Under the pieces are notes generated by a model. That model was not told the origin of the DNA and made no database searches. It was given only the letters and a program-made list of their open reading frames with translations. The position numbers and the translations under genes are program-made. A stretch of DNA of 64,000 nucleotides from Amphiscolops sp. MND2022 (Eukaryota), in contig OZ076409.1 of the NCBI GenBank assembly GCA_964187785.1, positions 36,706,001 to 36,770,000 of the forward strand. Direction: 5' to 3'. Positions 19,982 to 39,677 of the stretch are shown here, piece after piece; position 1 is the first letter of the stretch; each line of letters starts with the position of its first letter.

Positions 19982-20248
19982 TTGTTCCCATGGTGTTCAC
20001 ATCCACACAGTGTGAGAAACTGATCATCTCGAAGCAGGGCTGCCCTGCCATCTGCACACACACTACATAGGCTGTGCTGGGTGACAAATCTTGTATCGTG
20101 TAGTTGTTGGCCTTGATCACCTTGATAGATTTGGAACTGTCACTCCCTACTCCCCGATTGGGTGTCTCCCCCGCGAACTCTCTGTACCAGATGTAGTACT
20201 CGGCGATTTGCAACTCAGTCGGCATCCAGTCTATCGTAAGACTCTCAT
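19982..20248 (-). CDS. LRR-Ig-FN3 receptor gene, FN3 exon
   Basis: Encodes SLTIDW...YYIWYRE...YTIQDLSPSTAYVVCV, an FN3 consensus. AG/GT boundaries are phase 1/1. Confidence 0.85.
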
Positions 20249-20362
20249 CTGAATAAATTGGAGCATACAGAGTAAGACTCTCATCTGAATGAGTTAGTGT
20301 GTATTTTAGATGTTTTGAGTTAGGAAGTTTTTGTTTTCATCACCGTCGTTGCCAGAAAAAAG

Positions 20363-21543: not shown

Positions 21544-21781
21544 ATCCAATCTCGACGACCTTGACCTGTGAGATCTTGTACTTGTTGCAGTCGTTGTCAC
21601 AGAGGTCACACTGTTGCAACAAGTGTTGCTCGCTGACGTAATCAGTGACGTTGACCTGCACTGTTTTCTCCGACTTGCCGTGTTCGTTCTGAGCCAGGCA
21701 TTTGTACAGTCCAGAGTCCGACTGCTGGCTGTTGTAGACTAGCAACGTGCCGTCATTTTTCACTGTCACCCGCCCTATTTG
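21544..21781 (-). CDS. LRR-Ig-FN3 receptor gene, second half of the Ig domain
   Basis: cgtag|CAA start. GRVTVKNDGTLLV...DSGLYKCLAQNEHG is an I-set Ig signature. gttagt donor. Confidence 0.88.
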
Positions 21782-21869: not shown

Positions 21870-23373
21870 TGTCGCGCTATGACTAACGCTCTAACGAATC
21901 ACCAAAAGGCGCTTTCTATTATAAAAAATAACACGTGCAAAGAGAAACATAAAACTTGAACTAACGTTGTGTGGAGAGTGGAAAGTTGAAGTAAATATGG
22001 CGGCGGCCATAACGCGGCGGCCTCGAAGTGGAGTAATAAGTAATGGAATACTACGGGAAAGGAATTGCACTAGTGAAAATTTCTATTTCTTACCGCGGAT
22101 ATTTGAATTTTAAAGCTGAGCTACCATTGGTAGCATGCAACACATGCCGGCCAGGCACTTCAACAGCTGTGCTGAACTGTTTTTATACCGCGCGCACAGG
22201 CTGGAGATTCATTCATTCCCGCCGGACGGCTGAGCTCAACTTACAGCTCTCTCTCTCTCTCTCTCTTCAACTTATCAATTCCTCTACTTCTCTTACACTT
22301 ACTCTCCCCCTTCTCCCCCTCGACTCTTATTCTCCACTTTCTCTTTGCTTACATTGCACTTGTCTTATCTCAGACTTATAAAGTCAAACTTTCCTCCTTT
22401 TCTCCCTTTCCTCAAGCAAAAACTTATCTTTTCCTTTTCTCTATTCCCCAACAGAATTTTCTATCTTAGAAAATTCTCTTCAATTCAACTTGGTCTCCAG
22501 TTGGGTGAGTCGAAAATATCTTAGATTTTTTCTTTTAGAGGAGATTTTTTACTCTCCCTCCTTCTAACTGAACTCTATCTTAGAATAATTCCGCTGATTC
22601 AATTCTGCGGATTCTATCTTATAATAATTCCGCTGATTTAATTCTGCGGTTGTTAAAATTCTATCTTAGAATAATTCTGCTGATTTAATTCTGCGGTTTT
22701 CCCCTGTTAACTTATTTGTCTTTACCATTCCCATATTCAAAAAAAAAAAAGATGCTATTCCTAAAGTCTTAATGCTATTCCTAAAACAAAGGAGTAGAGA
22801 CTATAAAATTAAATAGTGTTGTCTAAGTTATTACAACACCAAAACTGGATTTTTCGTAAAAAAACTTTCTTCGAACTAAAGGAAATTACTATGAATTTCC
22901 TTCGATGCTAAATTTCTTCATCAATTTATGCTCTAAATTGAAATAGCTAAGATATTACTTCGGTTGCTGGCAAATAAATTTGGTGAGTTTGACTGAATAC
23001 TTGTAAACAGTTGAATAAAAACTGATATGTCTGAAGTTCAACTCTTTTATGTAATTCAACAAGTTTGCTAACATATGTTTTTTTTTCTATAGTTCAGAGA
23101 GCTCATTTACATTCACTGCCTTGCACTTACTCACGCAAGTTCCTTTGTTCGCACGTACACGCAAGGCACTTTCTTTTCGGTATTACAAAAAAGAAATTAA
23201 GTTATTGAGACTTTTCTACTTGTTCTACTTCAATAAAACAACAGTTGTTGGAAAAGCATTTTGCCAAATGTTGTAACAGCTGGGCTGACTAATACGGATA
23301 ACAAATTTGGAATTCCCCTCTAAAAGAGGAAACTGTAAAATAGCAGAACTGAAATTTATCCATGCGTGCGACA
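21870..23373 (+). repeat. 5' LTR (1504 bp)
   Basis: Near-identical to 38173-39677. Differences I saw are (CT)10 vs (CT)9, A12 vs A15, and one G/A at 22570. Contains three internal repeats of about 40 bp (22575-22700) and AATAAA at about 23232. Confidence 0.97.
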
Positions 23374-23376
23374 AAC

Positions 23377-23393
23377 TGGTGCGACCAGTGAGG
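23377..23393 (+). promoter_or_regulatory. Primer-binding site
   Basis: TGGTGCGACCAGTGAGG begins after a 3-nt spacer following the LTR and is complementary to a tRNA CCA end. The tRNA identity is not assigned. Confidence 0.8.
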
Positions 23394-24409
23394 CATCCTT
23401 TTTCTCTTACTATAGAGAAGTAAATGAGCAATCTGTTCGAATCCCTACTCTCAGAAGTTAGGGTTAACTACCTATTTCTCTTAATCTTACTTCTGATTTT
23501 CTTTTTTCTCCTACTGCCCCAATATGTGGCTTCTTTAGTCTATATAAATTACAGAACTGCTAGTAAATACTCTAATAGAATCTCTCCAGCTTAACAGCCG
23601 TTGGAAGAGACTGTGCTCTACCCAACTTAGTCCTCTCAATCCACAAAAAGGTTAGCGCTGATCTATTTTTACGGAAATGCTAGACTACATTCGGTCCTAA
23701 ACAAGAATGAAACTGCCCTCTAACACGGAATTTAAACTTACAGTTGGGAAGTTCACTCAAGTCCAGACGGACACACATTAAGTAAAAGCCCGCCTAGGTC
23801 TCCTCGGAGACTGGTTGAAGGCCGTGAGCCCAGTGGGTGTCCCGGAACCTGTGTAGCATTCCAAGTGGGAAACCTAGTATTCTAGTGATAGTACCCGAGT
23901 GTTTGCATGATAGTGATCTTGGCCCCGCGCACTTAATCCTGAGGACGAGAGTGACTCCCTCTGTTGGTTAGTTCTAGTACTACTTTTACAAAAGCCATTG
24001 AAAGGCTAGTCTAGCGAATTGAAGACCTATTGGACCGACTGTACTCTCCAATCTTTTAAGCTTAACTCGGAGGATTGGTATACTCCGAACTACCCTTTTT
24101 ACGGTAATCGTAACACAAGCGGGATTTGTAAGTATCCCCTAAAAATTTTGAAATTTCAGTAATAAATACTGGGAATGTGCCTATCCTGGGCTGAGATGCG
24201 CTAATTTCATTTTTACTAGCAGCGAATTACGGAGTATATGTTTTGTCAGACCTGCCTAATAATTATCACTGTTAGAATCATTGTACAAACAATTTTTACT
24301 TCCGCTCTTTGTAGTTACTCTCAAAAACCAGGAGTATCATACCTCACAGAGTCTTTGGCTTATTTTTCCTTACTTCATCTTCTATCTTTTATAACCTCAA
24401 TAGCTCACA

Positions 24410-25864
24410 ATGGCTGCGCAAAATTACTTGGCTTATCCAGACCTAGGCCGAGACCAATTCACAGGAACAGACCCAGATCAAGATCCTGAACAATTCATAC
24501 AGCTCATTGAAAAGAAGTTCCGGTTTTCTCACGGTGATACCCCGGCCAACGGACCAGCACTTGATGACTACAACTTCAGAAGAAAATCCTATTTTGCTAC
24601 ACTATTAAGAGGACCCGCAGCAGAGTGGTTCGAGACCAGCATCACAGACGCTAACACTTGGGCAGAAATCAGAGAGAGGTTCATAACGCGATTCGCAGAT
24701 GGCAGAAACAAATTTAGACACAGAATGGAAGCCGAACACGTCATCAGACGAGATGGAGAAGAAATAAAGAACTTCCTACACAGAATTAAAATAGTAGTCG
24801 GAAAAGGATGGCCAGATGATCTAGCCGGAGTCGCACAGAACAATAGAGACGCCGAAAGAGCAGCACAAGACAGACAAAGAAGACAGAGGTGCATTGACTA
24901 CTCACTGAGAGGCCTTCGACCCCCGAAACTGAGGGAAAAGGCACACGAATACTTAATGGATCATCCGAATGCAACCTGGGAGCAGTTCTCTCAAGCTGTA
25001 ATAAACAAAGACCTTTCTTACACAGTAACTACCTCTCTCACCGGTGGAGAATCACACGCAGACCCACTCATCCAAGAATTGCGAGAAGACATCAAAGGAA
25101 TCAAGCTACAAATCAAAGAACAGACGAACAACACTATCAATGCAATAGAGAAAACTGTTGATCCGAACGCAACAGGACGTAGAATGGCCACCAGGTTTTG
25201 CAGCTACTGCCGAACAAATGGGCATACGCCTAACTGGTGCAGAAAGAAGATGAGAGATGAAGAAATCAAGAAAGTTCAAAATGAATCCAACCCAGAGAGA
25301 CGAATAACTTTCACCAACGATTACAACAAAAGAACTGGACCTGGACATGGTTCTAGATTCCAAACTAGACTACCCGATTCAGAAATCAGAAAACATATGG
25401 CTGTGGCACATCAACTAGCACTTGCTGGAGCCATGCAGTCAAACCCTGCCCGGAACCAATATGATAGACCACAAAGAAGAAATTTCAACCCAGAACGCCG
25501 ACCTATGAATACAAGATTCAGTCCTGGTAACCAAAGATTTTCACAAGAAGGAAGAAGACCTTTTCTAAACAATTCTAACAATTCCAGAAGTGTTTCTCCT
25601 GGGCCCCAAAGAGCAAGATCTCCGTTCAGCTTCAACAGAGACCAGCCTAACTCCTTCAACCGCAACATACAGCCTCTTCCACCAAGGAATAACTCAGTCT
25701 TTAATAGACCACAAAACAGAAACGAAAGACCAAACACCCCCACTCAAACCTACGAACAAAGGTTCCCTAGAACTAACGACATGGGAAGACATAACACCGT
25801 ACAGTTTCTCGAAACAGATTACTCGGTGAACTCTGTCGCCGATATTCGCCCTTTAAACTATTAA
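24410..25864 (+). CDS. gag: Gag (484 aa)
   Basis: Capsid-like LRGPAAEWF...W.EIRERFITRF, a CCHC knuckle CSYCRTNGHTPNWC, and an R/N/P-rich C-terminus. Confidence 0.92.
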   Translation: MAAQNYLAYPDLGRDQFTGTDPDQDPEQFIQLIEKKFRFSHGDTPANGPALDDYNFRRKSYFATLLRGPAAEWFETSITDANTWAEIRERFITRFADGRNKFRHRMEAEHVIRRDGEEIKNFLHRIKIVVGKGWPDDLAGVAQNNRDAERAAQDRQRRQRCIDYSLRGLRPPKLREKAHEYLMDHPNATWEQFSQAVINKDLSYTVTTSLTGGESHADPLIQELREDIKGIKLQIKEQTNNTINAIEKTVDPNATGRRMATRFCSYCRTNGHTPNWCRKKMRDEEIKKVQNESNPERRITFTNDYNKRTGPGHGSRFQTRLPDSEIRKHMAVAHQLALAGAMQSNPARNQYDRPQRRNFNPERRPMNTRFSPGNQRFSQEGRRPFLNNSNNSRSVSPGPQRARSPFSFNRDQPNSFNRNIQPLPPRNNSVFNRPQNRNERPNTPTQTYEQRFPRTNDMGRHNTVQFLETDYSVNSVADIRPLNY

Positions 25865-28800
25865 GGTCTCCGAAAAACCGTAACAGCAGCACTGCCCCAC
25901 TAAAATTTAGTCTTAATCTTTATTATTTTGCTGCCGGAGACTCACAAAAAGATAGTGGCTTAGAAATCGAATTTCTACTAGACACTGGGGCAACATCTTC
26001 AATCATTAACTACAGGACCTTTAGAGAACTCTGTCAATTTCAACAAGACCTCGAACTCAGCAGAAGTAACAACACAACACGGAACTACTCTGGGCAGATC
26101 ATCCCTATGATGGGATACATCACCCTTAAACTCTACTACGATTCCGATGGACAACATAACTTCCCACTGACAGTCTGGATAACAGAGATGAAGACCCAAA
26201 ACCTCCTTGGAATGAACTTCTGTCAAGAACAAGTTAACAAAATACACTTTGATCTTCCTGGCATAGAACTCAAAAGACCTATAAATACTTTCTGCTATGG
26301 CAGTCTACAACTCAACAAATGTTACCCCTACGTATCACAAATACTCTCAGTCCGAATTCCTCACTCAATGTATATCGAACCAAAGACGACAAGATGTTAC
26401 AAATTTGCACCGGAAAACCCCAAGAACTCCTTTCCTCCCGGATCTACGTTCCTACCCAACAGAAAAGCAGTCTCTACAGGACTAAATTTTATAAATGTCC
26501 TTTGTACAAGATTTGAGAAGACTTTGCCAATCGTCATGGAAAATAACAAAAACCATACAATCACCCTAGTAAAAGGAACTATTGGATACTCTCTGCTCGA
26601 CGTATTAGACCAAGAAATTCCAAAATACCAAGTTAGAAACCCTACGGAACTCGCCTACGCTATCCTAAACGAAAACGAAGAATACAATGACTGTTTCCTG
26701 TTGCACTCCACCATCCCTTCACAAGATATGAACGATTGCATCAGAATAGAAGGAGGAAATTCTACTACAATCCTCAGCAGACCCGACTCCATCATGATCT
26801 TTGTCCCGGCAGATCTGAAGCCAGCCAAAGGCTTCTCGAAAGAAATCCTAACGAACATACCCTTGTTAAAAGAATCTTGCGCAAAACAGAAACCACTCAA
26901 AGGGGATACAATACCTTACTGGGACATGAATCTAAAACGATTCATATACGTCCTAATCACAAAAGCTAAATCAAAAGACAAAATCGACCCACAAATCTTA
27001 GTCCAAACGCTAGAGACTCTAAAAGCACACGCCAAAATGAATTGTATCAAGACCATTTCTATGTTACGAGAAGCGTCAGAACTAGAAGATTTCCAATGGC
27101 AAGATGTGACACAAATTATTCAAGATGTTTTTGCCTACTCGGAAATACAACTCCGAATTTATACAAGAAATGAACTAGACGTCTATGCTATGACTACGAG
27201 AGGAGACCCCGAATACGCGCTGGAAGACGAGATACAACAATTTTCCGAGCAATTTCACCTTAAACATAGAGAGCTGGAGACAGACTTTACGAGTGACGCA
27301 AAGTCTTGTCAACCACCCTGCGATGAGCAATTTAAAATCTTCAGGCAAAAAGAAGACAACGAAAGACTGATCGAGTATTACCTTCAGTACCAGAACAAAG
27401 AAGCAGTGCAATACATCAAAGAATTCGACTTTCGCTACTCAGACCTTACTGACGAGGAACTTGTGCTCCTAATAGACCAACTAATGGATGCGAGAGATGT
27501 ATACTCCCAACACAAATTCGACGTAGGAAAAACCAGACAGAAATTTAACATCAAACTCGAACCTGGAGCAATCCTGAAGAGACAGAGACCCAGCAAAGTA
27601 CCACTTCACCTAAGAGAAAAGTTAGAGAAGCTACTCACACAACTCAAAGACGCCGATATTATCAGAGAGATGGGCGATGACGACGAAATGGGATCCTTAT
27701 TCGTAAATCCTATTATACTACAACCAAAACACGACTATGTAAAACTGATCATAGACGCAAGATACCTAAATTCAGTGACGGATCTAACAAACTACTCCTG
27801 GCCCTTAGAACCGATCCAAACCATAATGACACTAATCAACGGGAACATCTTCTCAGTAAGTGATCTCTCCTGTGCATTTCACCAAGTCCCATTAGACGAG
27901 CCTACACAAAAACTTACAAGCTTCATCATAGGCGGGAAACAATACACCTTCACCAGAGGATTCTACGGACTTAAAGGGTTACCAAGCTTCTTTAGCCGAA
28001 TGATGACAATTCACTTCGAACCTCTCATTAAAAAGAAACAAGCAATCACCTACATAGACGACACGTTGATGCAAGCGAAAAGTAAACAAGAAATGTTCAC
28101 AGTGATTCAAGAATACCATAACCTACTACGGAAAGCGGGACTAAAAGCGGCACCTGACAAAACACTCTTCTTCTTGAGGAAAGTCAAGTTTTTGGGACAT
28201 GTGATTGCAGCAGAAGGAATACAACCCGTAGCTAAACGAGTAAGAGACCTACATAATCTCAAATCACCAAAAACCAAAACCGAAGTGAAAAGCTTCTTGG
28301 GAGCCTTAGGTTTCTACAGCTGCTACATCAAGAACCTTCACGTCGATAGTCGACCCTTTTACGAACTCACAAAAAAGGATACAAATTTCTGTTGGAACCA
28401 AGAACATGAAGACCTCTTCCAACAAATAAAGAAAAGAATCAGCGAAGACACAGTTCTTGCAGTACCTTCAACAAAATATCCCTTTCATATACACGTCGAC
28501 TCTTCCAACGTAGGGACAGGATGTATCCTCATACAACAATTTCCAGAAGGGAAACGGATCATTTCTTTCAATTCCAGAGTCTTCGCAAAAGAAGAACAAA
28601 AAATGTCTACTCTACATAGAGAACTATGTGGAATAGTCTCAGCATTACAAACCTACGAACACTATATCATTGGATCTCCCTTTCCAATTTACTTATATTG
28701 TGACCACAAACCAATTCTTTATCTCTGGGGACGAAAAGGACAAGTTTCACCGCGTTTCTTCAGGTACCAAGTAATAATCTCTAAATTCCCAAATCTCAAG

Positions 28801-31359
28801 ATAATTTGGACCCCAGGAAGCAATTTAGCCTTCCCTGATATACTCAGCAGAAACGTATCGATAGAAGAACACAAAAAACATCAACTCAGTCACAAAATCC
28901 TACCGAACGATATTCACTTCTTCGACGAGCATGGAACCCAAATACACTACAAAATAAAACACGAAGAAAACGAAGAAACGTCAAAAAACGATTTCTACCC
29001 CATCCTGTACGAAAAAGGAGATGAACGAAAAATTCTTCAACTACAAAACGATGGAAATAACTTCACAGTTAACAATATCTACGAGGAACCTAACCTGCCG
29101 AAAATAGAGTCAGCACAGAGTTGTCTCGACGCTGGAAGAGAACTAGGAAAATTTTCAGATCTAAAAATCAGATCCGGGACAAGGGATAGCACTTCCGATT
29201 CGTCTCAGAATACTTACAGCTCCATCAATAGCGATGCAGATGATGAAGCCTGCACAGACAACCAAAGTCATGAAGTAAACGAGACCAACTACGAGCTCAA
29301 CACTGAAGATCTCACCGCACGTAACACAGGTATTCCCGAAAATGCAAAGGCAATAGAACACCTCAGTCTACCTACAAATTCAACGGAAAAACACAAGACC
29401 CCAGCCCGAGAGCTCGTCAGTCAACTCGACAAAATATCAAAAGAAGTGGATCTAGACGTCACAACAATCTTACAAGAACAGATCAATGACCCGGTGCTCA
29501 GTGTGGTTCGACGATGGATACAAACCGGAAACAGGCCTACGCCAAAATCACCAGAATTACAACACTCTAAAGGACTCATGCGCTATTCCCAAGAGTTTGA
29601 TAGATTGACCATAGAAGAAAACGGAAACCTACTGTGCTACAATGAACCTACAGATAAGACGGAAGAAGAAAATCTTCGAATATGCTTACCACTCTCCTTA
29701 TTTCTCGCCTGCTTCCGATTAGGACACTACAACGACCTCGGAGGCCATATGGGAGCCGAGAAAACCTACCTAAATGCTAAAAGATTCTACTACTGGCCCG
29801 GGATGCACGACTGGATTTGTGCCCTCACACAAGATTGCGTTAGCTGCCAATCTAACAAATCCAAACAAAGAAGAAATTACGAAGTCCCACTGGAGGACTG
29901 TGAAACCGAGACCCAAGTATTCAGAACTGTTCATATCGATCACAAGGGACCACTCAACCCTCCCAGTCGTGGAAATTCACATTGCCTCCTCATCATCGAC
30001 GCATTTTCACGCTACTTGATGGCATACCCAGTTAGAGACACAGGTGCACAGTCAACAATCAACGCTATGGAAAAATGGATTATGCACTATGGGATACCGC
30101 AGTCTATCATACACGATAGAGGAACGGCTTTCGTAAACACTGAATTCGTCAATTGGACTAAAGAGTTAGGCATCACTCTCCGGCCAAGAACTGCACACTC
30201 ACCCTGGACTAACGGAAAAGTGGAAACCCAAAACCAACACATTGCAAGGTACTGGAGAAACTTCTTAAACGACTCAGGAAACAACTGGGCCCAACTAGCT
30301 GCTAAATTCGCATTTGCCCACAACACAAGCGTCAACTATACCACTGGAAAGACACCATACGAAATAGTCTTCTGCAATAAACCACAGATACCTATGAGTC
30401 TTAAGTTGGGTCTATACCGTAATAAAAACAAGAATTGCAGATCACAGTTCTGCAACGGACTGCCTCCTCACTGCCACAGCGAAAACCAAGTCAAAAACGA
30501 ACTGCTGAATGGACTATTAAGACCTCAACTATCTCAAAACCTGCTTGAAAGAGAGACCGCCTTCAAGAAAATCTATTCGTCCACTTACGAAAAATGCAGA
30601 AAACAAACAGCTAGATCTCATGCCTACAGAAACAGATTTAAACTAGGCAGCCATCTCAACATCGGACAAAAGGTCTTGTTAGAAAACCATCGGAAAGACC
30701 TCTCCAAAAGTCAAAAACTTCAACAACTGCGATTAGGACCATTTACAGTTACCAAGAGAATCACCAACACAACATACCAAATAAAAAACGATCAAAACCC
30801 CGAAAATCTCCGAACAGTCCATAGAAATCATTTAATAGAATACTTTCCCAAAGAGGAAACACTCCCCCCTCTTATAGAAGAATACACAACTCCCTACCGT
30901 GGAGACACGGATTTCTATAACAATTTTGTCAAAGGAAGAATAGAACGACTTAATGTTTCAGAACCACAGATACTCGGGGATCTCTGCATTTTACCAGTCC
31001 GAAACCAACAAAGACAGACCACCGCACAAAAACGAGTGAGAACTCCCCAGAGCACCGACTCTGGTATTATTTCCCCAGAAAATCACCGGTTGGGAACACC
31101 AACAACTCCGGATCAGCCTACTACATCCCGTCCTCCTGGTTCAACTACTCCTATCCAAACACTGACGCAACAAATAACACCCGAACCCTTGACTACCACA
31201 CCGGCTACTTCGACCAAATCTTTGACACCCCTACAAGAACTCAGGCGAGCGGTTGCAAGTCACGTCGAAAGAAATCCCCGCTATCAGCGAGCACAACCCA
31301 ACCAACCAGCACCACTGTCCATCCTTCGGCAAAAAACTCGCGTAGGCTACAAAGCCTAA
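25852..31359 (+). CDS. pol: Pol (protease, macrodomain, RT, RNase H, integrase), translated by -1 frameshift from gag
   Basis: The -1 frame is open from the slippery site T TTA AAC (25852). LLDTGA has D at 25981, upstream of the ORF-track ATG. Also YIDD (28051), RNase H HVDSS...CDHKP, integrase H-H-C-C, D-D-E and a GPF motif. Confidence 0.95.
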   Translation, partial: FKLLRSPKNRNSSTAPLKFSLNLYYFAAGDSQKDSGLEIEFLLDTGATSSIINYRTFRELCQFQQDLELSRSNNTTRNYSGQIIPMMGYITLKLYYDSDGQHNFPLTVWITEMKTQNLLGMNFCQEQVNKIHFDLPGIELKRPINTFCYGSLQLNKCYPYVSQILSVRIPHSMYIEPKTTRCYKFAPENPKNSFPPGSTFLPNRKAVSTGLNFINVLCTRFEKTLPIVMENNKNHTITLVKGTIGYSLLDVLDQEIPKYQVRNPTELAYAILNENEEYNDCFLLHSTIPSQDMNDCIRIEGGNSTTILSRPDSIMIFVPADLKPAKGFSKEILTNIPLLKESCAKQKPLKGDTIPYWDMNLKRFIYVLITKAKSKDKIDPQILVQTLETLKAHAKMNCIKTISMLREASELEDFQWQDVTQIIQDVFAYSEIQLRIYTRNELDVYAMTTRGDPEYALEDEIQQFSEQFHLKHRELETDFTSDAKSCQPPCDEQFKIFRQKEDNERLIEYYLQYQNKEAVQYIKEFDFRYSDLTDEELVLLIDQLMDARDVYSQHKFDVGKTRQKFNIKLEPGAILKRQRPSKVPLHLREKLEKLLTQLKDADIIREMGDDDEMGSLFVNPIILQPKHDYVKLIIDARYLNSVTDLTNYSWPLEPIQTIMTLINGNIFSVSDLSCAFHQVPLDEPTQKLTSFIIGGKQYTFTRGFYGLKGLPSFFSRMMTIHFEPLIKKKQAITYIDDTLMQAKSKQEMFTVIQEYHNLLRKAGLKAAPDKTLFFLRKVKFLGHVIAAEGIQPVAKRVRDLHNLKSPKTKTEVKSFLGALGFYSCYIKNLHVDSRPFYELTKKDTNFCWNQEHEDLFQQIKKRISEDTVLAVPSTKYPFHIHVDSSNVGTGCILIQQFPEGKRIISFNSRVFAKEEQKMSTLHRELCGIVSALQTYEHYIIGSPFPIYLYCDHKPILYLWGRKGQVSPRFFRYQVIISKFPNLKIIWTPGSNLAFPDILSRNVSIEEHKKHQLSHKILPNDIHFFDEHGTQIHYKIKHEENEETSKNDFYPILYEKGDERKILQLQNDGNNFTVNNIYEEPNLPKIESAQSCLDAGRELGKFSDLKIRSGTRDSTSDSSQNTYSSINSDADDEACTDNQSHEVNETNYELNTEDLTARNTGIPENAKAIEHLSLPTNSTEKHKTPARELVSQLDKISKEVDLDVTTILQEQINDPVLSVVRRWIQTGNRPTPKSPELQHSKGLMRYSQEFDRLTIEENGNLLCYNEPTDKTEEENLRICLPLSLFLACFRLGHYNDLGGHMGAEKTYLNAKRFYYWPGMHDWICALTQDCVSCQSNKSKQRRNYEVPLEDCETETQVFRTVHIDHKGPLNPPSRGNSHCLLIIDAFSRYLMAYPVRDTGAQSTINAMEKWIMHYGIPQSIIHDRGTAFVNTEFVNWTKELGITLRPRTAHSPWTNGKVETQNQHIARYWRNFLNDSGNNWAQLAAKFAFAHNTSVNYTTGKTPYEIVFCNKPQIPMSLKLGLYRNKNKNCRSQFCNGLPPHCHSENQVKNELLNGLLRPQLSQNLLERETAFKKIYSSTYEKCRKQTARSHAYRNRFKLGSHLNIGQKVLLENHRKDLSKSQKLQQLRLGPFTVTKRITNTTYQIKNDQNPENLRTVHRNHLIEYFPKEETLPPLIEEYTTPYRGDTDFYNNFVKGRIERLNVSEPQILGDLCILPVRNQQRQTTAQKRVRTPQSTDSGIISPENHRLGTPTTPDQPTTSRPPGSTTPIQTLTQQITPEPLTTTPATSTKSLTPLQELRRAVASHVERNPRYQRAQPNQPAPLSILRQKTRVGYKA

Positions 31360-31367
31360 TCTACATC

Positions 31368-31754
31368 ATGCCTTGTCATAAAGTTTACCTAAATTTATCA
31401 TGGCAAGTTCCACGAGAACTCCAATCCTTAAACGTTCTACACGTTACAATCACAAAAATCTACTGGACCTACACAAACAAACTAATTAGAATTTGCTTCT
31501 ACTCCAACGACCCAGACCCGAGCCCCCACAAACAACCTACGCCCAGAAAATCAAATCTTCATGTTCACCCAGAATCCAAAACGTTTGCTCAACTATATCA
31601 GCACCTAGCCTACCATGCAGTCAACCATCACGACCCTATCCTAGAAGAACTCTTATCCTACATGCCTACCCTAATTCCTGACCTACAACCTTCCTCACAC
31701 AATACTCAAAAGGACCTATTCTGCTGCTCGACTATCTCCTCACCTAGCTCCTAG
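31368..31754 (+). CDS. Accessory ORF A (128 aa), unknown function
   Basis: ATG lies 8 nt after the pol stop. Shares a residue pattern with ORFs B-D. Confidence 0.6.
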   Translation: MPCHKVYLNLSWQVPRELQSLNVLHVTITKIYWTYTNKLIRICFYSNDPDPSPHKQPTPRKSNLHVHPESKTFAQLYQHLAYHAVNHHDPILEELLSYMPTLIPDLQPSSHNTQKDLFCCSTISSPSS

Positions 31755-31916
31755 CCGGCACATTTAACCTATTAGCGATGTATTACCTTTAATATATTCT
31801 ACTTCCGTTTATCGATATTATTTGTGCAATCCCGAACATGACTTACGAAAAGCCACAAGCACAGAAGCGTATAAAAATAGTAGAGAATTTTCCTGGAGAT
31901 GAGAGGCGACTTGCGC

Positions 31917-32561
31917 CTACTCAATCTCCAGAAAACCGCCTTTCTCCGCTAGCCGCCTCAACTGGGAAGCCCGCTCCTCTCTGGTCCATAACTGGTACAG
32001 CCTCACCCACTGCCCCCTCTCGAAGCTGGTCAACTGGCAGAACCCATCTATATAGGCCCTCAGTTGACACAGCACTAATTCCCCTAGAGGGGACAGGAGG
32101 GTTCCCTCCCAACGGGCTCCCAGGTTGGCCCTCAAGAAACTCACAAAGGCATTTGGGATGGGCGCCCCAGATAAGGCAAACCCGGGAGACCCCCGCATGG
32201 AACGGGACAAAGAGGCCCAATTCTCTAACCGGTCCACGTCCCTCCGGTTAAAGAGGCTGAGAAAACTCTGCTCTCCGGGGTTCTCTAAAACCCCTTGAGC
32301 CACTACTGTGGAGGCCTGCAGGACTGGCCTGGGGGCCACAGCAGCAACAGGCGCAGAAGAGGAGGACGGCCCAGCCGCCAACAAAGAAGGCCCAGCCAAC
32401 GACAAAGAAGGCCCAGCGGCCGACGAAGGGCCCACAGACGACGAGGGAGCAGACGACGAGGGAGCAGACGACGAGGGAGCAGACGACGAAGCAGCAGACG
32501 CAACTGTTTCCTCATCGGTCGATGATTCCTCGTAGTAGTCAGACTCGTTGTTGTTACTCAT
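31917..32561 (-). CDS. Antisense accessory ORF (214 aa), acidic and Ser/Ala/Pro-rich N-terminus
   Basis: ATG-initiated. A TATA-like TTATAAAA lies about 65 nt upstream and ATTAAA about 125 nt downstream on the minus strand. It is a GC-rich island inside an A-rich element. Confidence 0.55.
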   Translation of the reverse strand: MSNNNESDYYEESSTDEETVASAASSSAPSSSAPSSSAPSSSVGPSSAAGPSLSLAGPSLLAAGPSSSSAPVAAVAPRPVLQASTVVAQGVLENPGEQSFLSLFNRRDVDRLENWASLSRSMRGSPGFALSGAPIPNAFVSFLRANLGARWEGTLLSPLGELVLCQLRAYIDGFCQLTSFERGQWVRLYQLWTREERASQLRRLAEKGGFLEIE

Positions 32562-32849
32562 TCTGAAGATATCTTAGCTTTTTTTGTCCTAAAGTAATGC
32601 ATGCTTAAACAAATATTTATCTCTTATTTTATAACAATATCTTATGGTTATTTGCCTAAACCGCCTACGATAATCCTACAATAGATAGAATATATCTTTT
32701 GAAACTTCTCTGTACTCAACCACGATCTTCTACGAGATCGTGTTTATACTTTTCAAACACCTCTGTCCTCCAACGCAATGAAATAACTGATGATTACATT
32801 CTCAGATTTGCCATGTTTGAACAACAGTGAACACTGAAGTATCTCACAG

Positions 32850-33071
32850 ATGATCATAATCTTCAAAATCGACAACCGTCTTTCACAAATCACAGATATC
32901 CAGAAGGAACCCTCAACGCAGAACATTATCGTACAAGCATACGCAATAGCAGAAGAAGAAAGTGAAACCTACACTTGTGTGCCAGCATCACCTATCTACC
33001 CTCTACTGGAGAGCTTGCTATATAACAACACCCCTACTGAAGTCGTCACAAGAGCCAAGTCAGTCATTTAA
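32850..33071 (+). CDS. Accessory ORF B (73 aa)
   Basis: Its stop overlaps the next start (TAATG). Pattern is similar to ORFs A, C and D. Confidence 0.5.
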   Translation: MIIIFKIDNRLSQITDIQKEPSTQNIIVQAYAIAEEESETYTCVPASPIYPLLESLLYNNTPTEVVTRAKSVI

Positions 33072-33466
33072 TGTCCTCTCCCGCAGTCGCCGTGTTCCGC
33101 GGAAATAATTACTACTTCCACACACAGTTTCAACCTCCTGTTCCTTGGACTCCCATACAACTCAAGGGCCAATACGAAATACAGTCAATCTTCTACGAGA
33201 TCACAACCTCTGCGATTCAAGTGCGTATACTCACACCAGAAGACAAAGAAGCTCTAGTCCTCTTCCCTATTCACTTCGGATCCAAGGAATACGCCTACTT
33301 ATTCCTTTCGTTCAAGCAATACATCCTCCAACACCCCGCAGTTCTCAAAGACAAGGCTTTCGACGACTTGGTTTATTTTATGGACATCACTCTCACCTCC
33401 AACCCCTTCGAAGAAGAAGTTAGAATCAAATACCTTCACAGCCTAGTCGACACTTATGATGTTTAA
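33071..33466 (+). CDS. Accessory ORF C (131 aa)
   Basis: Start is coupled to ORF B by TAATG; overlaps ORF D by 11 nt. Confidence 0.62.
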   Translation: MSSPAVAVFRGNNYYFHTQFQPPVPWTPIQLKGQYEIQSIFYEITTSAIQVRILTPEDKEALVLFPIHFGSKEYAYLFLSFKQYILQHPAVLKDKAFDDLVYFMDITLTSNPFEEEVRIKYLHSLVDTYDV

Positions 33467-33800
33467 GATTCAACTCAAGTTTCTCTGGCGCCACCCTGAA
33501 ACAAATACACTTCTCGAAATTCTCTCTATCGCTTGGAAAGAAAACGCACCTTCACTACAAATCGAACTCCATAGCCTCCGACCACAAAACCCAGGACATT
33601 GGCTCATCCCAGTTGACACCAACTCCCAAGAGGCTACTGATCTCTCACTCGCACTAAAGGAATATAGGCAAATTGCCTATCTCGACCACATCCACCCTCT
33701 AACACTGTTCCTCCTCAACAAGCTCATTGACTTCCTCGAATTGAGAAGACGAAACAAAACCTCTCCCAGTCTACAATCAATCCGTGACAACTACAATTGA
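33456..33800 (+). CDS. Accessory ORF D (114 aa)
   Basis: ATG overlaps the end of ORF C; paralog-like pattern. Confidence 0.62.
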   Translation: MMFKIQLKFLWRHPETNTLLEILSIAWKENAPSLQIELHSLRPQNPGHWLIPVDTNSQEATDLSLALKEYRQIAYLDHIHPLTLFLLNKLIDFLELRRRNKTSPSLQSIRDNYN

Positions 33801-33845
33801 ACTTTCAGCAATGGTTGAAGTTAGTCTCTTTTAACTTCCTATTTT

Positions 33846-34300
33846 GGCACTTTTTAACAGTAGTGAGGTTACTACTATAAAATTTTAACCTCCGCTTAGT
33901 GCTAGTGCCCACTAAGCTGCCGGTTTGATATTACGGCTTGCCTTTTTACGGCCTTATAACGGATCCTCAATAATAAAATATACTAAAGCTTCAATAATTA
34001 ACCTACTCTTCGGCACTTTTTTAACAGTAGTGAGGTTACTACTATAAAATTTTAACCTCCGCTTAGTGCTAGTGCCCACTAAGCTGTCGGTTTGATATTA
34101 CGACTTGCCTTTTTACGGCCTTACTACGAATCCTCCTCTCTGGAACACACACCTATTTCCCTGAAATAATAAAATACTTATCGTTCCCCTCGGCACGTTT
34201 TAACAGTAGTGAGGTTACTACTATAAAATTTTAACCTCCGCTTAGTGTTGTGCCAGCTAAGCTGCCGGTTTGATATTACGGCTTGCCTCTTTACGGTCTC
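33846..34300 (+). repeat. Three tandem copies of a structured element of about 110 nt upstream of env
   Basis: Copies start at 33846, 34012 and 34192. Stems are conserved, with a compensatory base change in copy 2. Confidence 0.9.
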
Positions 34301-34377
34301 TACTAAACACTTAAACTGATTCTTTAACAGGGAGCGATTACACGGTTGATTCAAAAACAGACTGAAGAATTTCAACA

Positions 34378-36525
34378 ATGAAATTATTTTTCTTACTCTT
34401 CTTATGCGCCAATTTCGCGCCCGTTGTGAACTCACAACGTTCAACGCCAAACCTCGCTAGCGTTGCTAAAAAATTGCGAGTAACTCATTTCGACTGCGGC
34501 GAAATGACACAAAATAAGCTCTACGCCTTGAATCAAGTAGAGCAATGCAATGTGGCCCCGGAAAACTTAGAAGTAAGTCGTGCTAGCGTGACGTTATACA
34601 CTAAACACTTTCGTCGCACTATCAACGCTACTATGTGCCGTGTGAAACACCAGAGTGAAGAATGGCATTGTGGTCATAATGACCACTCCAGTATGTCAAT
34701 CCTACACAACGGAATCACCAGCGATATTTCCTTGTCACCCGAAACCTGTAAGGCCATGGGCGAAGGCAAAGAAGTCATGATCCATGGACAACCCCTCAAA
34801 TTTAAGAAAGGAGTCAAACAAGTACAGACGAGAAACGCCAAATACGGAAAAAGTTGGGATGGAGTACGTGACCCTGATACCCGTAATGAGTGCAAGACAG
34901 GCGGATGGATTAAACGCGAAACCTTCGAATCTCATATCCAAGACGTCGAATTATCAGTCAAAACCAGAGACGGGAAAATCCTCACACCCTTCCAGATGGT
35001 TCTCCCCTGCCCCCTGGAACAACTCGGCTGCGAAACCACGTCATTGGACCCGTACGCCTATACATGGGCAGAGCCAGATAACTGCGTGCTCGCAGTCCAC
35101 AGAAAAGAAATAGTGAATATGATCAAACATGGCTCTAACTACTATATAGTTAGCGGCAACGACTCCACTACCAAGTTCCTATTCGAAATATACAACAGGC
35201 CACAGAAATACTGCAACAAACCCGATGATGTCTACCCTACCAATTACGAATCCCTCTACGTTTCGACCCAATTTGGTGGCTTCGACATGACTTCTGGCAG
35301 ACGACTCGGCATCTCCATGGGAGAAACCTCCAAACTTCAATATTACTCACCCAACGATGGTTCTGGTAATGGCAGACTCCACCTCTTCAGAGGCCCCAGC
35401 GACTCCAACCCCAACACACCACATTATCTCAACATGGATTACGAACTCCACCAAGGAACCAAGTTAGATTATCTCTTCTTTGAGAGCACCCGCTTACTCG
35501 AAGCTTCAGAGATCCAGCTATTGAAAGCTCAATGTGAGCAAGAACGAACACAAATCCTTACCATCCTGATGTTATCCATGGAAAACCCACGACTCGCCGG
35601 ATACATGCTCACGGGAAATCGCTCGATGTTCCTGAACACAGATGGTAGCCTCGCATGGCTCTACCACTGCCCGGAATCCCACTCACCTCTTCACACGATG
35701 AACCAATGCTACGACCGCATACCAATCTTCTACAAGGGAGTGGTCGCCTTTGTAGACCCCATAACCCGACAAACATATCCTAACGCGAACGTACAAAACT
35801 GCACAGATCGTATTAAGAACCTCTTCCAACTGGACATGGAAGACAAGGACTCCTGGTTCACCCTTACACCTTCACCCGAACATCGGGACCGGCCTGCTAT
35901 CTTCGGACCCAAAGACATCCAGCCAATGATTACCAGATCTTTCCCAGGATCACAGGACGCGGGAATGTACACTCCCAAGCAACTCTCCGAGTTTTGGGAC
36001 AACATCCTCATCAGCGCCGCATCACGTAATGCCCTCCAGAAGTTCTCAAGAGAGCTCATCATACCCTCCATGGCCCACAGCGGACCAGAATCCTTCGCGT
36101 ATTACGCACCTCGTACAGATTTCTATGTCGACGGAATGATTTCACCCGACTACTTTAAAAATCAGTTCCTCGAAACATTCGGAAGTATATCTTATGTACT
36201 AGAACTCTGCGGAGCGTACTTTGGCGCTTTCCTTTTTATCAAGTTCGTCATAGATATCACGGTACTAGTCTTCCGCTACTTCGAACTTCGTCACCTTACA
36301 GGTAACACACTGAGCTTCACTAAAACCTTGCTCAGTGCTTCGTACAACCTTTTCTTTACCTCTGTTTTAACTTCCGTATTTACCCCGCGGGCCCCTTTCG
36401 AGGATAGCATTGAAGACAAAAGGGTAAAAACAGAAGACGAAGAAAAAGGAGTAGAACTCCAAATCCTAAAACAAAAAGAGGAATCACTATATCCCTCGGT
36501 ACAGAGCTTTGTTGCTCCAATATGA
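34378..36525 (+). CDS. env: Envelope glycoprotein (715 aa), chuvirus-G/herpes-gB-like class III fusogen candidate
   Basis: Signal peptide and a Cys-rich ectodomain (HFDC, C-x8-HCG, CEQER...P..A..L, CYDRIPI...FVDPITR). N-glycosylation sequons are present, with a C-terminal TM at about 36196-36273. Confidence 0.85.
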   Translation: MKLFFLLFLCANFAPVVNSQRSTPNLASVAKKLRVTHFDCGEMTQNKLYALNQVEQCNVAPENLEVSRASVTLYTKHFRRTINATMCRVKHQSEEWHCGHNDHSSMSILHNGITSDISLSPETCKAMGEGKEVMIHGQPLKFKKGVKQVQTRNAKYGKSWDGVRDPDTRNECKTGGWIKRETFESHIQDVELSVKTRDGKILTPFQMVLPCPLEQLGCETTSLDPYAYTWAEPDNCVLAVHRKEIVNMIKHGSNYYIVSGNDSTTKFLFEIYNRPQKYCNKPDDVYPTNYESLYVSTQFGGFDMTSGRRLGISMGETSKLQYYSPNDGSGNGRLHLFRGPSDSNPNTPHYLNMDYELHQGTKLDYLFFESTRLLEASEIQLLKAQCEQERTQILTILMLSMENPRLAGYMLTGNRSMFLNTDGSLAWLYHCPESHSPLHTMNQCYDRIPIFYKGVVAFVDPITRQTYPNANVQNCTDRIKNLFQLDMEDKDSWFTLTPSPEHRDRPAIFGPKDIQPMITRSFPGSQDAGMYTPKQLSEFWDNILISAASRNALQKFSRELIIPSMAHSGPESFAYYAPRTDFYVDGMISPDYFKNQFLETFGSISYVLELCGAYFGAFLFIKFVIDITVLVFRYFELRHLTGNTLSFTKTLLSASYNLFFTSVLTSVFTPRAPFEDSIEDKRVKTEDEEKGVELQILKQKEESLYPSVQSFVAPI

Positions 36526-36556
36526 ATTATTATCTCATTTCGTAGTTTACGTTTAG

Positions 36557-37159
36557 AATTTAGAACCCTTATTCGACCTCCCAAACCTGGACGACGACAT
36601 CCCTAACTCTATCTTAGAAGACGACTTGCAGATAGAACCCTTATCACCTTCTGACCTGCTGTCACCTGCTTCTCCCACAACTATTACCTTTCTCCTAGAT
36701 CCCCCAGACTCAACAGTTCCTTCTCCGATTCCAAGCGCCCTAACAACAACACCCTCTCCAACGACATCACTACAACTCCCCTTTCCGCTGTCATTTACAG
36801 AAGAGGTAGCGCCTATCCCATCAACTCAACATCCACCTCGATCGCCCCAACATCCACCCCGCTTCGGCGGAAAAGACATAAGACGGGCACTACCCAGGAA
36901 ACACCAACAACAATGGAATGACAAAATAACAGATGACACGCCACTGAAGAAACAACACAAGCGGGAGTACTTCACTAAACGAGCAAGACACGTTAAGAAG
37001 CCCAGATTCAACACAGAGTTGAAATACACTCTCCTCCCACAATTCTCAACTTGGAAAATCGTTTTCTGGGATAACAAGAGACAAGAGTACACCATAGAGA
37101 ACCCAGCCCTAAAGGGACAAAGACTAACGGTCCCCCTAAGAGCCATCTCAGCACAATGA
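36557..37159 (+). CDS. Pro/Ser/Thr-rich ORF with basic C-terminal half, no ATG (possibly spliced)
   Basis: The frame is open from 36557, right after tttacgtttag (acceptor-like). Its stop overlaps the TRAF ORF start (ATGA). Confidence 0.45.
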   Translation, partial: NLEPLFDLPNLDDDIPNSILEDDLQIEPLSPSDLLSPASPTTITFLLDPPDSTVPSPIPSALTTTPSPTTSLQLPFPLSFTEEVAPIPSTQHPPRSPQHPPRFGGKDIRRALPRKHQQQWNDKITDDTPLKKQHKREYFTKRARHVKKPRFNTELKYTLLPQFSTWKIVFWDNKRQEYTIENPALKGQRLTVPLRAISAQ

Positions 37160-38058
37160 ATCGGAGGCTAAACCCAGACGCTATCCCCTTCATCCCAAAA
37201 AGCACTCCTTCCTTCCCCAAAGCTAACGACTGGCCACCTCTATCCAGGACAGAGAATAAAGATGACCTCGAGACACTCGAGGGAATCAAAAGATTGAACA
37301 AATGGATCGCTGAACTGGAAGTCTCAACTAGCCCACAAAGTGAAAAGGTAACCCCGATCCTAAGGAAATCGTTTCCCATAACCGACATAAAACAGCCTAG
37401 AACAAAGTTTGCTAGTGAAATGAAACAACTCCAAAACTTGGCAGAAGAAACGCGGACTAAATGTAATCACTTGGAACTCACAATATCCAATCTACAAGCG
37501 ACAATCAAGTTTCAAGGCGCCCTACTCAACAAAACCAACGTATTAGACGCAAGAAGTGGTGAACCCATCCTTTGGCACATACCCGCTTTTTCCACACTAT
37601 ACAGAAAAGCAAAGACCTCCCCGAATGATGCGTTGAACAACATCAAAAATAGCTTCACTAGCCCTATCTACACTACCCACCTAACCGGCTGCAAAATATC
37701 CCTCAGACTATTCCCTTATGGCGCCAACATCTTCCGCGGAACCCATTCCTCAATTTCTTGTGATCTACACCCCAGCGACTTCACTCTCCCACGAACGTGG
37801 CCTTTCGAGCAACAATTGATCGTCTCAATCATAGACCAAAAAGACAAGAACAACAAATGGTCCATCTCCTTTCCCTATCCCTCCAAAACAGAAGAGTATG
37901 AAGACCCGCACAAGAACGACTACACACTCCCAGGACTGATGAGAGAAGACTTCATCGCGCACACAAAACTCCTGGTAAACTTTAGAGAAGCCTTCCTAAA
38001 CAATGACTCCGTCATAATCCAAATTCAATTTGACAGACCCCTTTTTTCTAAACCCTAG
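37156..38058 (+). CDS. PAM2 - coiled coil - TRAF/MATH domain protein (300 aa)
   Basis: LNPDAIPFIP (PAM2), a heptad segment, then ILWHI...SPIYT...GCKISLRLFPYG...GTH.S...WPF.Q.....IIDQ...FL.NDSVIIQI, matching the TRAF-C consensus. No RING or zinc fingers. Confidence 0.88.
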   Translation: MNRRLNPDAIPFIPKSTPSFPKANDWPPLSRTENKDDLETLEGIKRLNKWIAELEVSTSPQSEKVTPILRKSFPITDIKQPRTKFASEMKQLQNLAEETRTKCNHLELTISNLQATIKFQGALLNKTNVLDARSGEPILWHIPAFSTLYRKAKTSPNDALNNIKNSFTSPIYTTHLTGCKISLRLFPYGANIFRGTHSSISCDLHPSDFTLPRTWPFEQQLIVSIIDQKDKNNKWSISFPYPSKTEEYEDPHKNDYTLPGLMREDFIAHTKLLVNFREAFLNNDSVIIQIQFDRPLFSKP

Positions 38059-38160
38059 TGCTAAAACATGTCCCCCTTCCCTCATGCTCTTTCACCTAAT
38101 ACCTCTTTCTTGACCTGACCCCAAATTTCTCTAGTAAAGTTGTTGCTTTTTCACCCTGCC

Positions 38161-38172
38161 AGGGGGGTGAGC
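38161..38172 (+). promoter_or_regulatory. Polypurine tract
   Basis: AGGGGGGTGAGC lies immediately before the 3' LTR. Confidence 0.75.
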
Positions 38173-39677
38173 TGTCGCGCTATGACTAACGCTCTAACGA
38201 ATCACCAAAAGGCGCTTTCTATTATAAAAAATAACACGTGCAAAGAGAAACATAAAACTTGAACTAACGTTGTGTGGAGAGTGGAAAGTTGAAGTAAATA
38301 TGGCGGCGGCCATAACGCGGCGGCCTCGAAGTGGAGTAATAAGTAATGGAATACTACGGGAAAGGAATTGCACTAGTGAAAATTTCTATTTCTTACCGCG
38401 GATATTTGAATTTTAAAGCTGAGCTACCATTGGTAGCATGCAACACATGCCGGCCAGGCACTTCAACAGCTGTGCTGAACTGTTTTTATACCGCGCGCAC
38501 AGGCTGGAGATTCATTCATTCCCGCCGGACGGCTGAGCTCAACTTACAGCTCTCTCTCTCTCTCTCTTCAACTTATCAATTCCTCTACTTCTCTTACACT
38601 TACTCTCCCCCTTCTCCCCCTCGACTCTTATTCTCCACTTTCTCTTTGCTTACATTGCACTTGTCTTATCTCAGACTTATAAAGTCAAACTTTCCTCCTT
38701 TTCTCCCTTTCCTCAAGCAAAAACTTATCTTTTCCTTTTCTCTATTCCCCAACAGAATTTTCTATCTTAGAAAATTCTCTTCAATTCAACTTGGTCTCCA
38801 GTTGGGTGAGTCGAAAATATCTTAGATTTTTTCTTTTAGAGGAGATTTTTTACTCTCCCTCCTTCTAACTAAACTCTATCTTAGAATAATTCCGCTGATT
38901 CAATTCTGCGGATTCTATCTTATAATAATTCCGCTGATTTAATTCTGCGGTTGTTAAAATTCTATCTTAGAATAATTCTGCTGATTTAATTCTGCGGTTT
39001 TCCCCTGTTAACTTATTTGTCTTTACCATTCCCATATTCAAAAAAAAAAAAAAAGATGCTATTCCTAAAGTCTTAATGCTATTCCTAAAACAAAGGAGTA
39101 GAGACTATAAAATTAAATAGTGTTGTCTAAGTTATTACAACACCAAAACTGGATTTTTCGTAAAAAAACTTTCTTCGAACTAAAGGAAATTACTATGAAT
39201 TTCCTTCGATGCTAAATTTCTTCATCAATTTATGCTCTAAATTGAAATAGCTAAGATATTACTTCGGTTGCTGGCAAATAAATTTGGTGAGTTTGACTGA
39301 ATACTTGTAAACAGTTGAATAAAAACTGATATGTCTGAAGTTCAACTCTTTTATGTAATTCAACAAGTTTGCTAACATATGTTTTTTTTTCTATAGTTCA
39401 GAGAGCTCATTTACATTCACTGCCTTGCACTTACTCACGCAAGTTCCTTTGTTCGCACGTACACGCAAGGCACTTTCTTTTCGGTATTACAAAAAAGAAA
39501 TTAAGTTATTGAGACTTTTCTACTTGTTCTACTTCAATAAAACAACAGTTGTTGGAAAAGCATTTTGCCAAATGTTGTAACAGCTGGGCTGACTAATACG
39601 GATAACAAATTTGGAATTCCCCTCTAAAAGAGGAAACTGTAAAATAGCAGAACTGAAATTTATCCATGCGTGCGACA
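38173..39677 (+). repeat. 3' LTR (1505 bp)
   Basis: Direct repeat of 21870-23373, followed by the TSD CAAT. Confidence 0.97.

Follow-up and report, generated by a model that had tools for sequence, protein, structure and literature searches.

An env-bearing Ty3/gypsy element carrying an unclassified family of small proteins between pol and env

Do the small ORFs that lie between pol and env of a large LTR element of Amphiscolops sp. MND2022 descend from one domain, and what could they do for the element? The question comes from a preliminary description of 64,000 nucleotides of contig OZ076409.1 (assembly GCA_964187785.1, positions 36,706,001 to 36,770,000, forward strand), hereafter called the window. 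In that description four small ORFs at 31368..33800 were aligned by eye, called orphans and tentatively considered diverged paralogs of one domain, belonging to an expanded, fast-evolving accessory family. All eight peptides cited for these ORFs are present in that interval.

The element and its gene content

The window contains an intact Ty3/gypsy-type LTR element of 17,808 nt, located at 21870-39677. The 5′ LTR (21870..23373, + strand) has TG...CA ends and is directly preceded by a 4-bp target-site duplication, CAAT, which also follows the 3′ LTR (38173..39677, +), itself preceded by a purine tract. A TGG resembling a primer-binding site lies at 23377, 3 nt past the 5′ LTR. Between the two LTRs there are one mismatch in 1502 aligned columns and two repeat-length indels, and this near identity, together with the flanking CAAT, indicates a recent insertion. 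Each LTR also contains three short tandem repeats of approximately 44 nt (22570-22699 and 38871-39000).

The gag gene (24410..25864, +) encodes a protein of 484 aa with a capsid-type Retrotrans_gag domain near its N-terminus. The end of gag overlaps a slippery-type heptamer and pol is in the −1 frame; we infer that pol is expressed from gag through a −1 frameshift. The pol frame (25795..31359, +) encodes protease, a TARG1/OARD1-like macrodomain, RT, RNase H and integrase, in the Ty3/gypsy order. The macrodomain, located between protease and RT (26749-27201, +), was recognized by comparison with solved structures (E 4e-10) and is not detected by Pfam. The env gene (34378..36525, +) encodes a 715-aa fusion glycoprotein of the Monjiviricetes (chuvirus-like) type (PF24664, E 5e-31, above the cut-off), which presents a hydrophobic window at residue 614 and a highest 19-residue hydropathy of 2.09.

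Downstream of env, an open frame (36557..37159, +) has no ATG at its start; translation from a TTG at 36626 would give 177 aa. The stop of this frame overlaps the ATG of a TRAF-like ORF (37156..38058, +), and a TURBS-type core is found 89 nt upstream of this overlap. The TRAF-like ORF encodes 300 aa with a C-terminal MATH domain, to which TRAF4/5 are the closest among solved structures, and its product is a possible decoy of host TRAF signalling. The exact TRAF-like protein occurs on 8 contigs and the exact env protein on 10.

By this anatomy, namely the TG...CA LTRs with the CAAT duplication, the order of the pol domains and the env fusion glycoprotein, the element is classified as an env-bearing Ty3/gypsy element (Metaviridae). 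Identity with Troyka was rejected, given the CG...CG ends and 3-bp duplications of the latter in the accessible text of PMC12440569. Searches with env in viral contigs and with RT in metagenome contigs revealed no related loci, and the enrichment of GATA sites in the LTR and before B did not exceed chance (27/200 and 85/200, respectively).

The interval between pol and env has 3,018 nt and holds ORFs A to D, while gag to env spans 12,116 nt. ORF A (31368..31754, +; 128 aa) starts 8 nt past the pol stop. ORF B (32850..33071, +; 73 aa) is followed by ORF C (33071..33466, +; 131 aa), the ATG of which overlaps the B stop (TAATG), and ORF D (33456..33800, +; 114 aa) has its start codons just before the C stop. 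The four ORFs are not contiguous, since A and B are separated by 1.1 kb containing an antisense ORF (31917..32561, −) that would encode an acidic, low-complexity product of 214 aa and forms a cluster of one. This antisense ORF has a Ser/Ala-rich start and is arranged head to head with B across 288 AT-rich bases. The location of the four ORFs between pol and env of an LTR element, a context that the preliminary description did not name, fits the term accessory family used there.

Relationship among ORFs A, C and D

ORFs A, C and D are very probably paralogs, although the evidence differs markedly between single sequences and deep profiles. In Smith-Waterman comparisons of 36 pairs only C-D stands out (score 49; 2/2000 shuffles as high); p was 0.04 for A-D and 0.06 for A-C, against 0.03 for one control pair, and B gave nothing. 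Searches with single sequences retrieved relatives for C (13 of 19 candidates), D (12 of 14) and A (7 of 14), so that the ORFs are not orphans: the first-round relatives of A, C and D are unnamed ENA proteins with 55-99% identity.

Seed HMMs were built from 10 C, 8 D and 7 A rows, each set including the protein of the window and leaving out frameshifted rows and the most distant A relative. In the six directed tests among A, C and D, 0, 9, 2, 0, 0 and 0 of 300 column shuffles scored as high, and in the six tests with B, 77-227 of 300. The comparison of the seeds alone in hhalign, a check suggested in the preliminary description, was weak, with probabilities of 0.3-4% in standard runs of the A/C/D pairs and 19/60 (D-A), 7/60 (D-C) and 0/60 (A-C) shuffles as high. 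These weak seed comparisons, and a pairwise signal that is clear for C-D only, would agree with A, C and D being unrelated small alpha/beta proteins, the likeness of which comes from amphipathic patterns and a biased search.

When 1.84 billion proteins were searched with a joint profile built from 17 sequences of A, C and D, 51 reached E ≤0.001. Of these, 46 were new, and single-family HMMs assigned each of the 46 to A, C or D and none to B. Deep family alignments comprised 26 (A), 25 (D) and 9 (C, two fusions dropped) rows. Their profiles aligned D with A over 90 columns (probability 84.6, E 6.8e-6; E 1.1e-4 in a standard hhalign run), D with C over 80 (62.5, 7.3e-5) and A with C over 93 (76.4, 2.2e-5), E-values that are somewhat optimistic, to an unmeasured degree, because the distant members were gathered by the joint A/C/D profile. 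For each of these pairs 0/60 shuffles scored as high, and reversed profiles scored 11-14 versus 31-37 for the real ones. When only distant members were used (16 A, 14 D and 2 C, without the proteins of the window and their close copies), E ranged from 4e-5 to 4e-4, again with 0/60 shuffles as high. Pairwise hhalign is therefore significant for A, C and D with deep profiles, and not for B.

The three alignments are mutually consistent over 80-97 columns and superpose the same aromatic and hydrophobic columns, and the reversed controls fail. This, and the agreement in element order and length between the separately predicted folds of A and D, argues against unrelated proteins, an explanation that we consider very improbable. 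When the 864 segments of the six-frame translation of the window were ranked, D and A came right behind C with the deep C profile, and A came next with the deep D profile; with seed profiles, only that of D places another paralog in the top seven (C second, A fifth).

MAFFT recovered, unprompted, the register proposed by eye for A, C and D, and left B out of register. Identity is low, as had been stated: on average 15-18% between the A, C and D families, against 41% within A and within D. The pattern I..I.......I.I was also confirmed and corresponds to strands 2-3 of the predicted fold, whereas the supposedly conserved Ser is a Ser/Thr column, placed at the start of the first long helix in the models. 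The near-invariant columns are Trp11, Ile22, Ile25 and Leu63 (D numbering), and Trp27 is found in 96% of the A and D families.

AlphaFold2 models obtained from the separate A and D alignments show the same order of two long strands, two shorter strands and two helices. The D model (pLDDT 83.9) comprises E2-12, E19-28, E33-40, E48-54, H58-76 and H81-101, and the A model (pLDDT 81.5) E4-13, E25-34, E39-46, E61-66, H71-86 and H90-102. The A model differs by an additional short helix, inserted between the first two strands, and by a longer loop ahead of strand 4; both correspond to gaps in the alignment. Among 48,161 chains, the top 50 matches of the two models have 9 in common, five of them with identical chain ranges, and these common weak matches lend indirect support to a single predicted fold. 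The likeness of the A and D models was judged by this order and by the common matches.

Foldseek gave no match at E 0.001 or better in BFVD, for either model, or in PDB. By sequence, the best PDB match has E 0.84, and the ESM Atlas had no usable match for C and a best value of 0.77 for D. Pfam returned nothing above the cut-off for A to D, no family for the 26 A-family members or for P0037, P0050 and P0056, and three weak matches, each in one member, for the 25 D-family members. No description of the element or of the domain was found in the literature outside subscription journals and Repbase. The domain of A, C and D, having no clear structural match, is a candidate new fold; missing matches do not prove newness.

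ORF B, expression and history of the cassette

Judged from its sequence, B is a real, constrained gene of the cassette, because of an excess of silent changes in its frame and of the homology with the tail of P0056. B belongs to a 4-member cluster. Two related copies read across the 3′ part of B in other frames, and 11 of the 14 differences are silent in the B frame (about 35% expected), the remainder being two non-silent changes and one ambiguous. The tail of P0056, a frame-changing A-type protein, aligns with B without gaps over 46 residues (score 56), with 0/5000 shuffles as high, and this is the best alignment among 178 proteins.

Paralogy of all four ORFs, as first claimed, is supported by the profiles of A, C and D and by the predicted folds of A and D, and was not shown for B. 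The joint HMM ranks B 45th among the 864 segments, in the register first proposed. In hhalign with the deep A/C/D profiles, B was not separated from shuffles or decoys; one 8-column match with A scored above all 60 shuffles, but failed against the reversed control. A two-block score designed post hoc places B in register, with 38/1000 shuffles and 2/292 real-protein decoys as high, while for the second block alone 693/1000 shuffles scored as high. Moreover, the first Trp is missing from B, and the length of B does not allow the second helix. B may be a fourth copy that became truncated, or else a small gene of the same cassette with no relation to the other three, and to its membership in the family we give slightly less than an even chance.

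ORFs B, C and D abut by stop/start overlaps, which suggests coupled translation by analogy with rhabdoviruses, where such overlaps accompany termination-reinitiation according to the accessible part of PMC4334499. C and D would then be translated by stop-restart from the ORF upstream; for A, ribosomes would restart after pol, or a shorter RNA would be used. The start methionine is retained throughout the A and D families. The 110 nt preceding each of the pol/A, B/C and C/D junctions contain no TURBS core, and a simple rule gave no 3′ splice-site candidates for A or B, although splicing may still play a part.

Between D and env there are three tandem repeats (33846..34299, +) with spacings of 167 and 179 nt. 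They are predicted to form five stems with two pseudoknots, in which 78/78 cells pair and one pair has a compensatory change; with only three copies, this pairing does not exceed the shuffle control (172/500), and a low plain folding energy is not a consistent feature (z −0.4 to −2.0). No Rfam family reached the threshold in 31300-34500, and a search of viral, metagenome and prokaryote genome contigs for the repeat motif gave 0 matches. The repeats could serve as an IRES, as an export element or to block Xrn1, and each of the copies opens with a T-rich AG resembling a 3′ splice site.

Off-frame tails of D relatives match the downstream repeats, and the tail of one A relative matches the DNA after A. 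As the repeats lie directly next to D and are retained downstream of distant D relatives, the paralogs might be Rev/Tat-like nucleic-acid-binding regulators of the RNA of the element, acting for example on these repeats. The predicted unit of four strands plus a helix recalls PC4, Pur and Whirly, which are single-strand binders with such a unit, and the fold searches retrieved Pur-alpha (Z 3.3) and MRP1/2 (E 0.44). On the other hand, both matches are at noise level, and the net charge at pH 7 of A to D, from −5 to +1 (B and C acidic, A and D near neutral), is low for an RNA binder. A role as RNA regulators is therefore judged unlikely.

In a tree of 59 rows, inferred from few columns, with flagged long branches and with family labels set beforehand, the A (98/97), C (99/97) and D (87/86) families each fall on one side of a branch. 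Among distant relatives, a C-type protein directly precedes a D-type one in the frameshift-joined P0048, P0062 and P0071. A sister family has A-type and D-type proteins with 54-61% identity, on equal-sized contigs in 3 of 5 cluster members. The separate branches and the kept gene order indicate that the duplications are probably old and were stably kept; the domain would have been duplicated before the element families diverged, each copy being kept afterwards. The identical C protein is present on 13 contigs and the identical D protein on 12, with no sign of hypervariability within the active family. An expanded and fast-evolving family, as initially supposed, is thus partly right: there are three old separate branches and no ongoing expansion.

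Many distant relatives are frameshifted, as would be expected if the ORFs were passengers or relics without present function for the element. Nevertheless, start codons and hydrophobic cores persist in relatives with as little as about 25-30% identity, the A and D models are confident, intact identical proteins occur on those 12-13 contigs, and the visible changes are mostly silent in the B frame (11/14, as above). Relics are therefore a quite improbable explanation.

Possible functions and comparison with known systems

As the best explanation, we propose tentatively, with confidence just short of even, that A, C and D are host-binding accessory proteins with a counter-defence role. The proteins encoded between pol and env would be old duplicates of one soluble domain of four strands and two helices, acting as small adaptors, each of which would bind a different host protein and blunt host defence. 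ORFs A to D have no membrane segment (highest 19-residue hydropathy 0.48-1.05). The same element carries the TRAF-like ORF and the macrodomain, and domains of the TRAF/MATH and macrodomain kinds act in immune signalling or in ADP-ribose reversal. A precedent is given by rhabdoviruses, which have duplicated small accessory genes with stop-start translation in the accessible text of PMC4334499. The preliminary description had offered, as an inference, host-factor or silencing antagonists, a proposal for which the support is contextual.

Alternatively, the paralogs could be particle-assembly, matrix-like adaptors linking the capsid to the Env tail or to the membrane at budding. The capsid-type match starts at Gag residue 61, which leaves little room for a matrix domain, the cassette is just upstream of env, and coupled ORFs would set a ratio of products. 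In addition, PH-like or PH-GRAM domains head the weak structural matches for the A and D models (Z 4.3-5.3, rmsd 3.2-3.5, 71-74 residues aligned); the best VIA matches of the two models have Z 5.3 and 4.3. The matches to PH-GRAM of MTMR6/MTMR2 and to the p62 PH domain cover most of the domain, but Z below 6 corresponds, according to the search tool, to the level of common arrangements. PH-like domains also have a seven-strand sandwich plus a C-terminal helix, whereas the A and D models have only four strands, and these matches provide no evidence of a PH function. Membrane-binding matrix proteins are basic, unlike the acidic B and C and the near-neutral A and D. Moreover, the errantiviruses of PMC13524379 were, in its accessible text, gathered as three-ORF elements. 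Matrix-like adaptors are thus rather unlikely, and we rank them behind host-binding factors and ahead of RNA-binding regulators.

The element is a known kind of element, an env-bearing Ty3/gypsy, carrying an unclassified domain family of three ORFs, with B as a candidate member. Its closest known counterparts are the env-bearing Ty3/gypsy errantiviruses of PMC13524379, which, in the accessible text, share LTRs, gag, a pol with PR-RT-RH-IN, a chuvirus-like gB-type Env and near-identical copies. The screen described there was limited to at most 1,000 nt between pol and env and at most 10,000 nt in total, so the layout of the present element, with 3,018 nt and with 12,116 nt from gag to env, would have been filtered out. 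The main text of PMC13524379 does not contain the words accessory, MATH or macro, and its supplementary tables may hold relatives.

Three small duplicated accessory genes with low identity are also found as U1, U2 and U3 between P and M of hapaviruses, a family in which stop-start translation is common according to the accessible part of PMC4334499. However, these are negative-strand RNA viruses, and no TURBS core is associated with the B-C-D overlaps, so the likeness is an analogy only; U1/U2/U3 are absent among the best 50 BFVD matches of the A or D model. In Drosophila, elements of the MDG1 group carry sORF1 and sORF2, small Ty3/gypsy accessory ORFs of 70-110 aa (bioRxiv 10.1101/2025.03.14.642691, accessible part). 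These differ in lying upstream of gag in env-less elements; sORF1 is helical and sORF2 a membrane fusogen, whereas A to D have no membrane segment and A and D are predicted to be strand-rich. LTR elements of bdelloid rotifers have captured extra genes (ORF3s) downstream of pol, which are, in the accessible text of PMC5408684, single ORFs of enzyme or env origin, with no duplicated family beside env.

Among retroelements, the vpr and vpx genes of lentiviruses offer a further parallel, being duplicated small accessory genes the products of which bind host factors. They belong, however, to vertebrate Retroviridae and have a helical fold. Invertebrate env-bearing Ty3/gypsy elements are mostly described as three-gene genomes. 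The present element is intact and multi-copy, and its duplicated accessory family, TRAF-like gene and macrodomain suggest that genomes became complex in this group as well. It is conceivable, if somewhat doubtful, that the element represents a lineage of complex invertebrate endogenous viruses, Ty3/gypsy elements with a self-built accessory toolkit as in lentiviruses. To the whole combination making up this toolkit (a new fold present in three or four diverged copies, a captured TRAF decoy, the macrodomain and double-pseudoknot RNAs controlling env) we likewise give less than an even chance. If true, such a complex-virus reading would speak for an infectious life cycle and for an arms race between the element and the innate immunity of the host. 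A, C and D are small, soluble and easily expressed, and pull-downs with them could name the host defences that restrict such elements.

In two unnamed proteins, P0064 and P0067, the A-type domain follows UTR-like low-complexity sequence and not the end of pol; they may mark a different arrangement in another element family. The window also contains a second, smaller Ty3/gypsy-type element (10233-16049, +), with 209-nt LTRs that are 99% alike and pol distributed over three ORFs. Exons of a host gene are present on the minus strand, an Ig I-set exon at 21557-21781 and a second exon-like stretch at about 20000-20280. The large element lies 88 nt from the Ig I-set exon, just upstream of it, and is probably located within an intron of this host gene.
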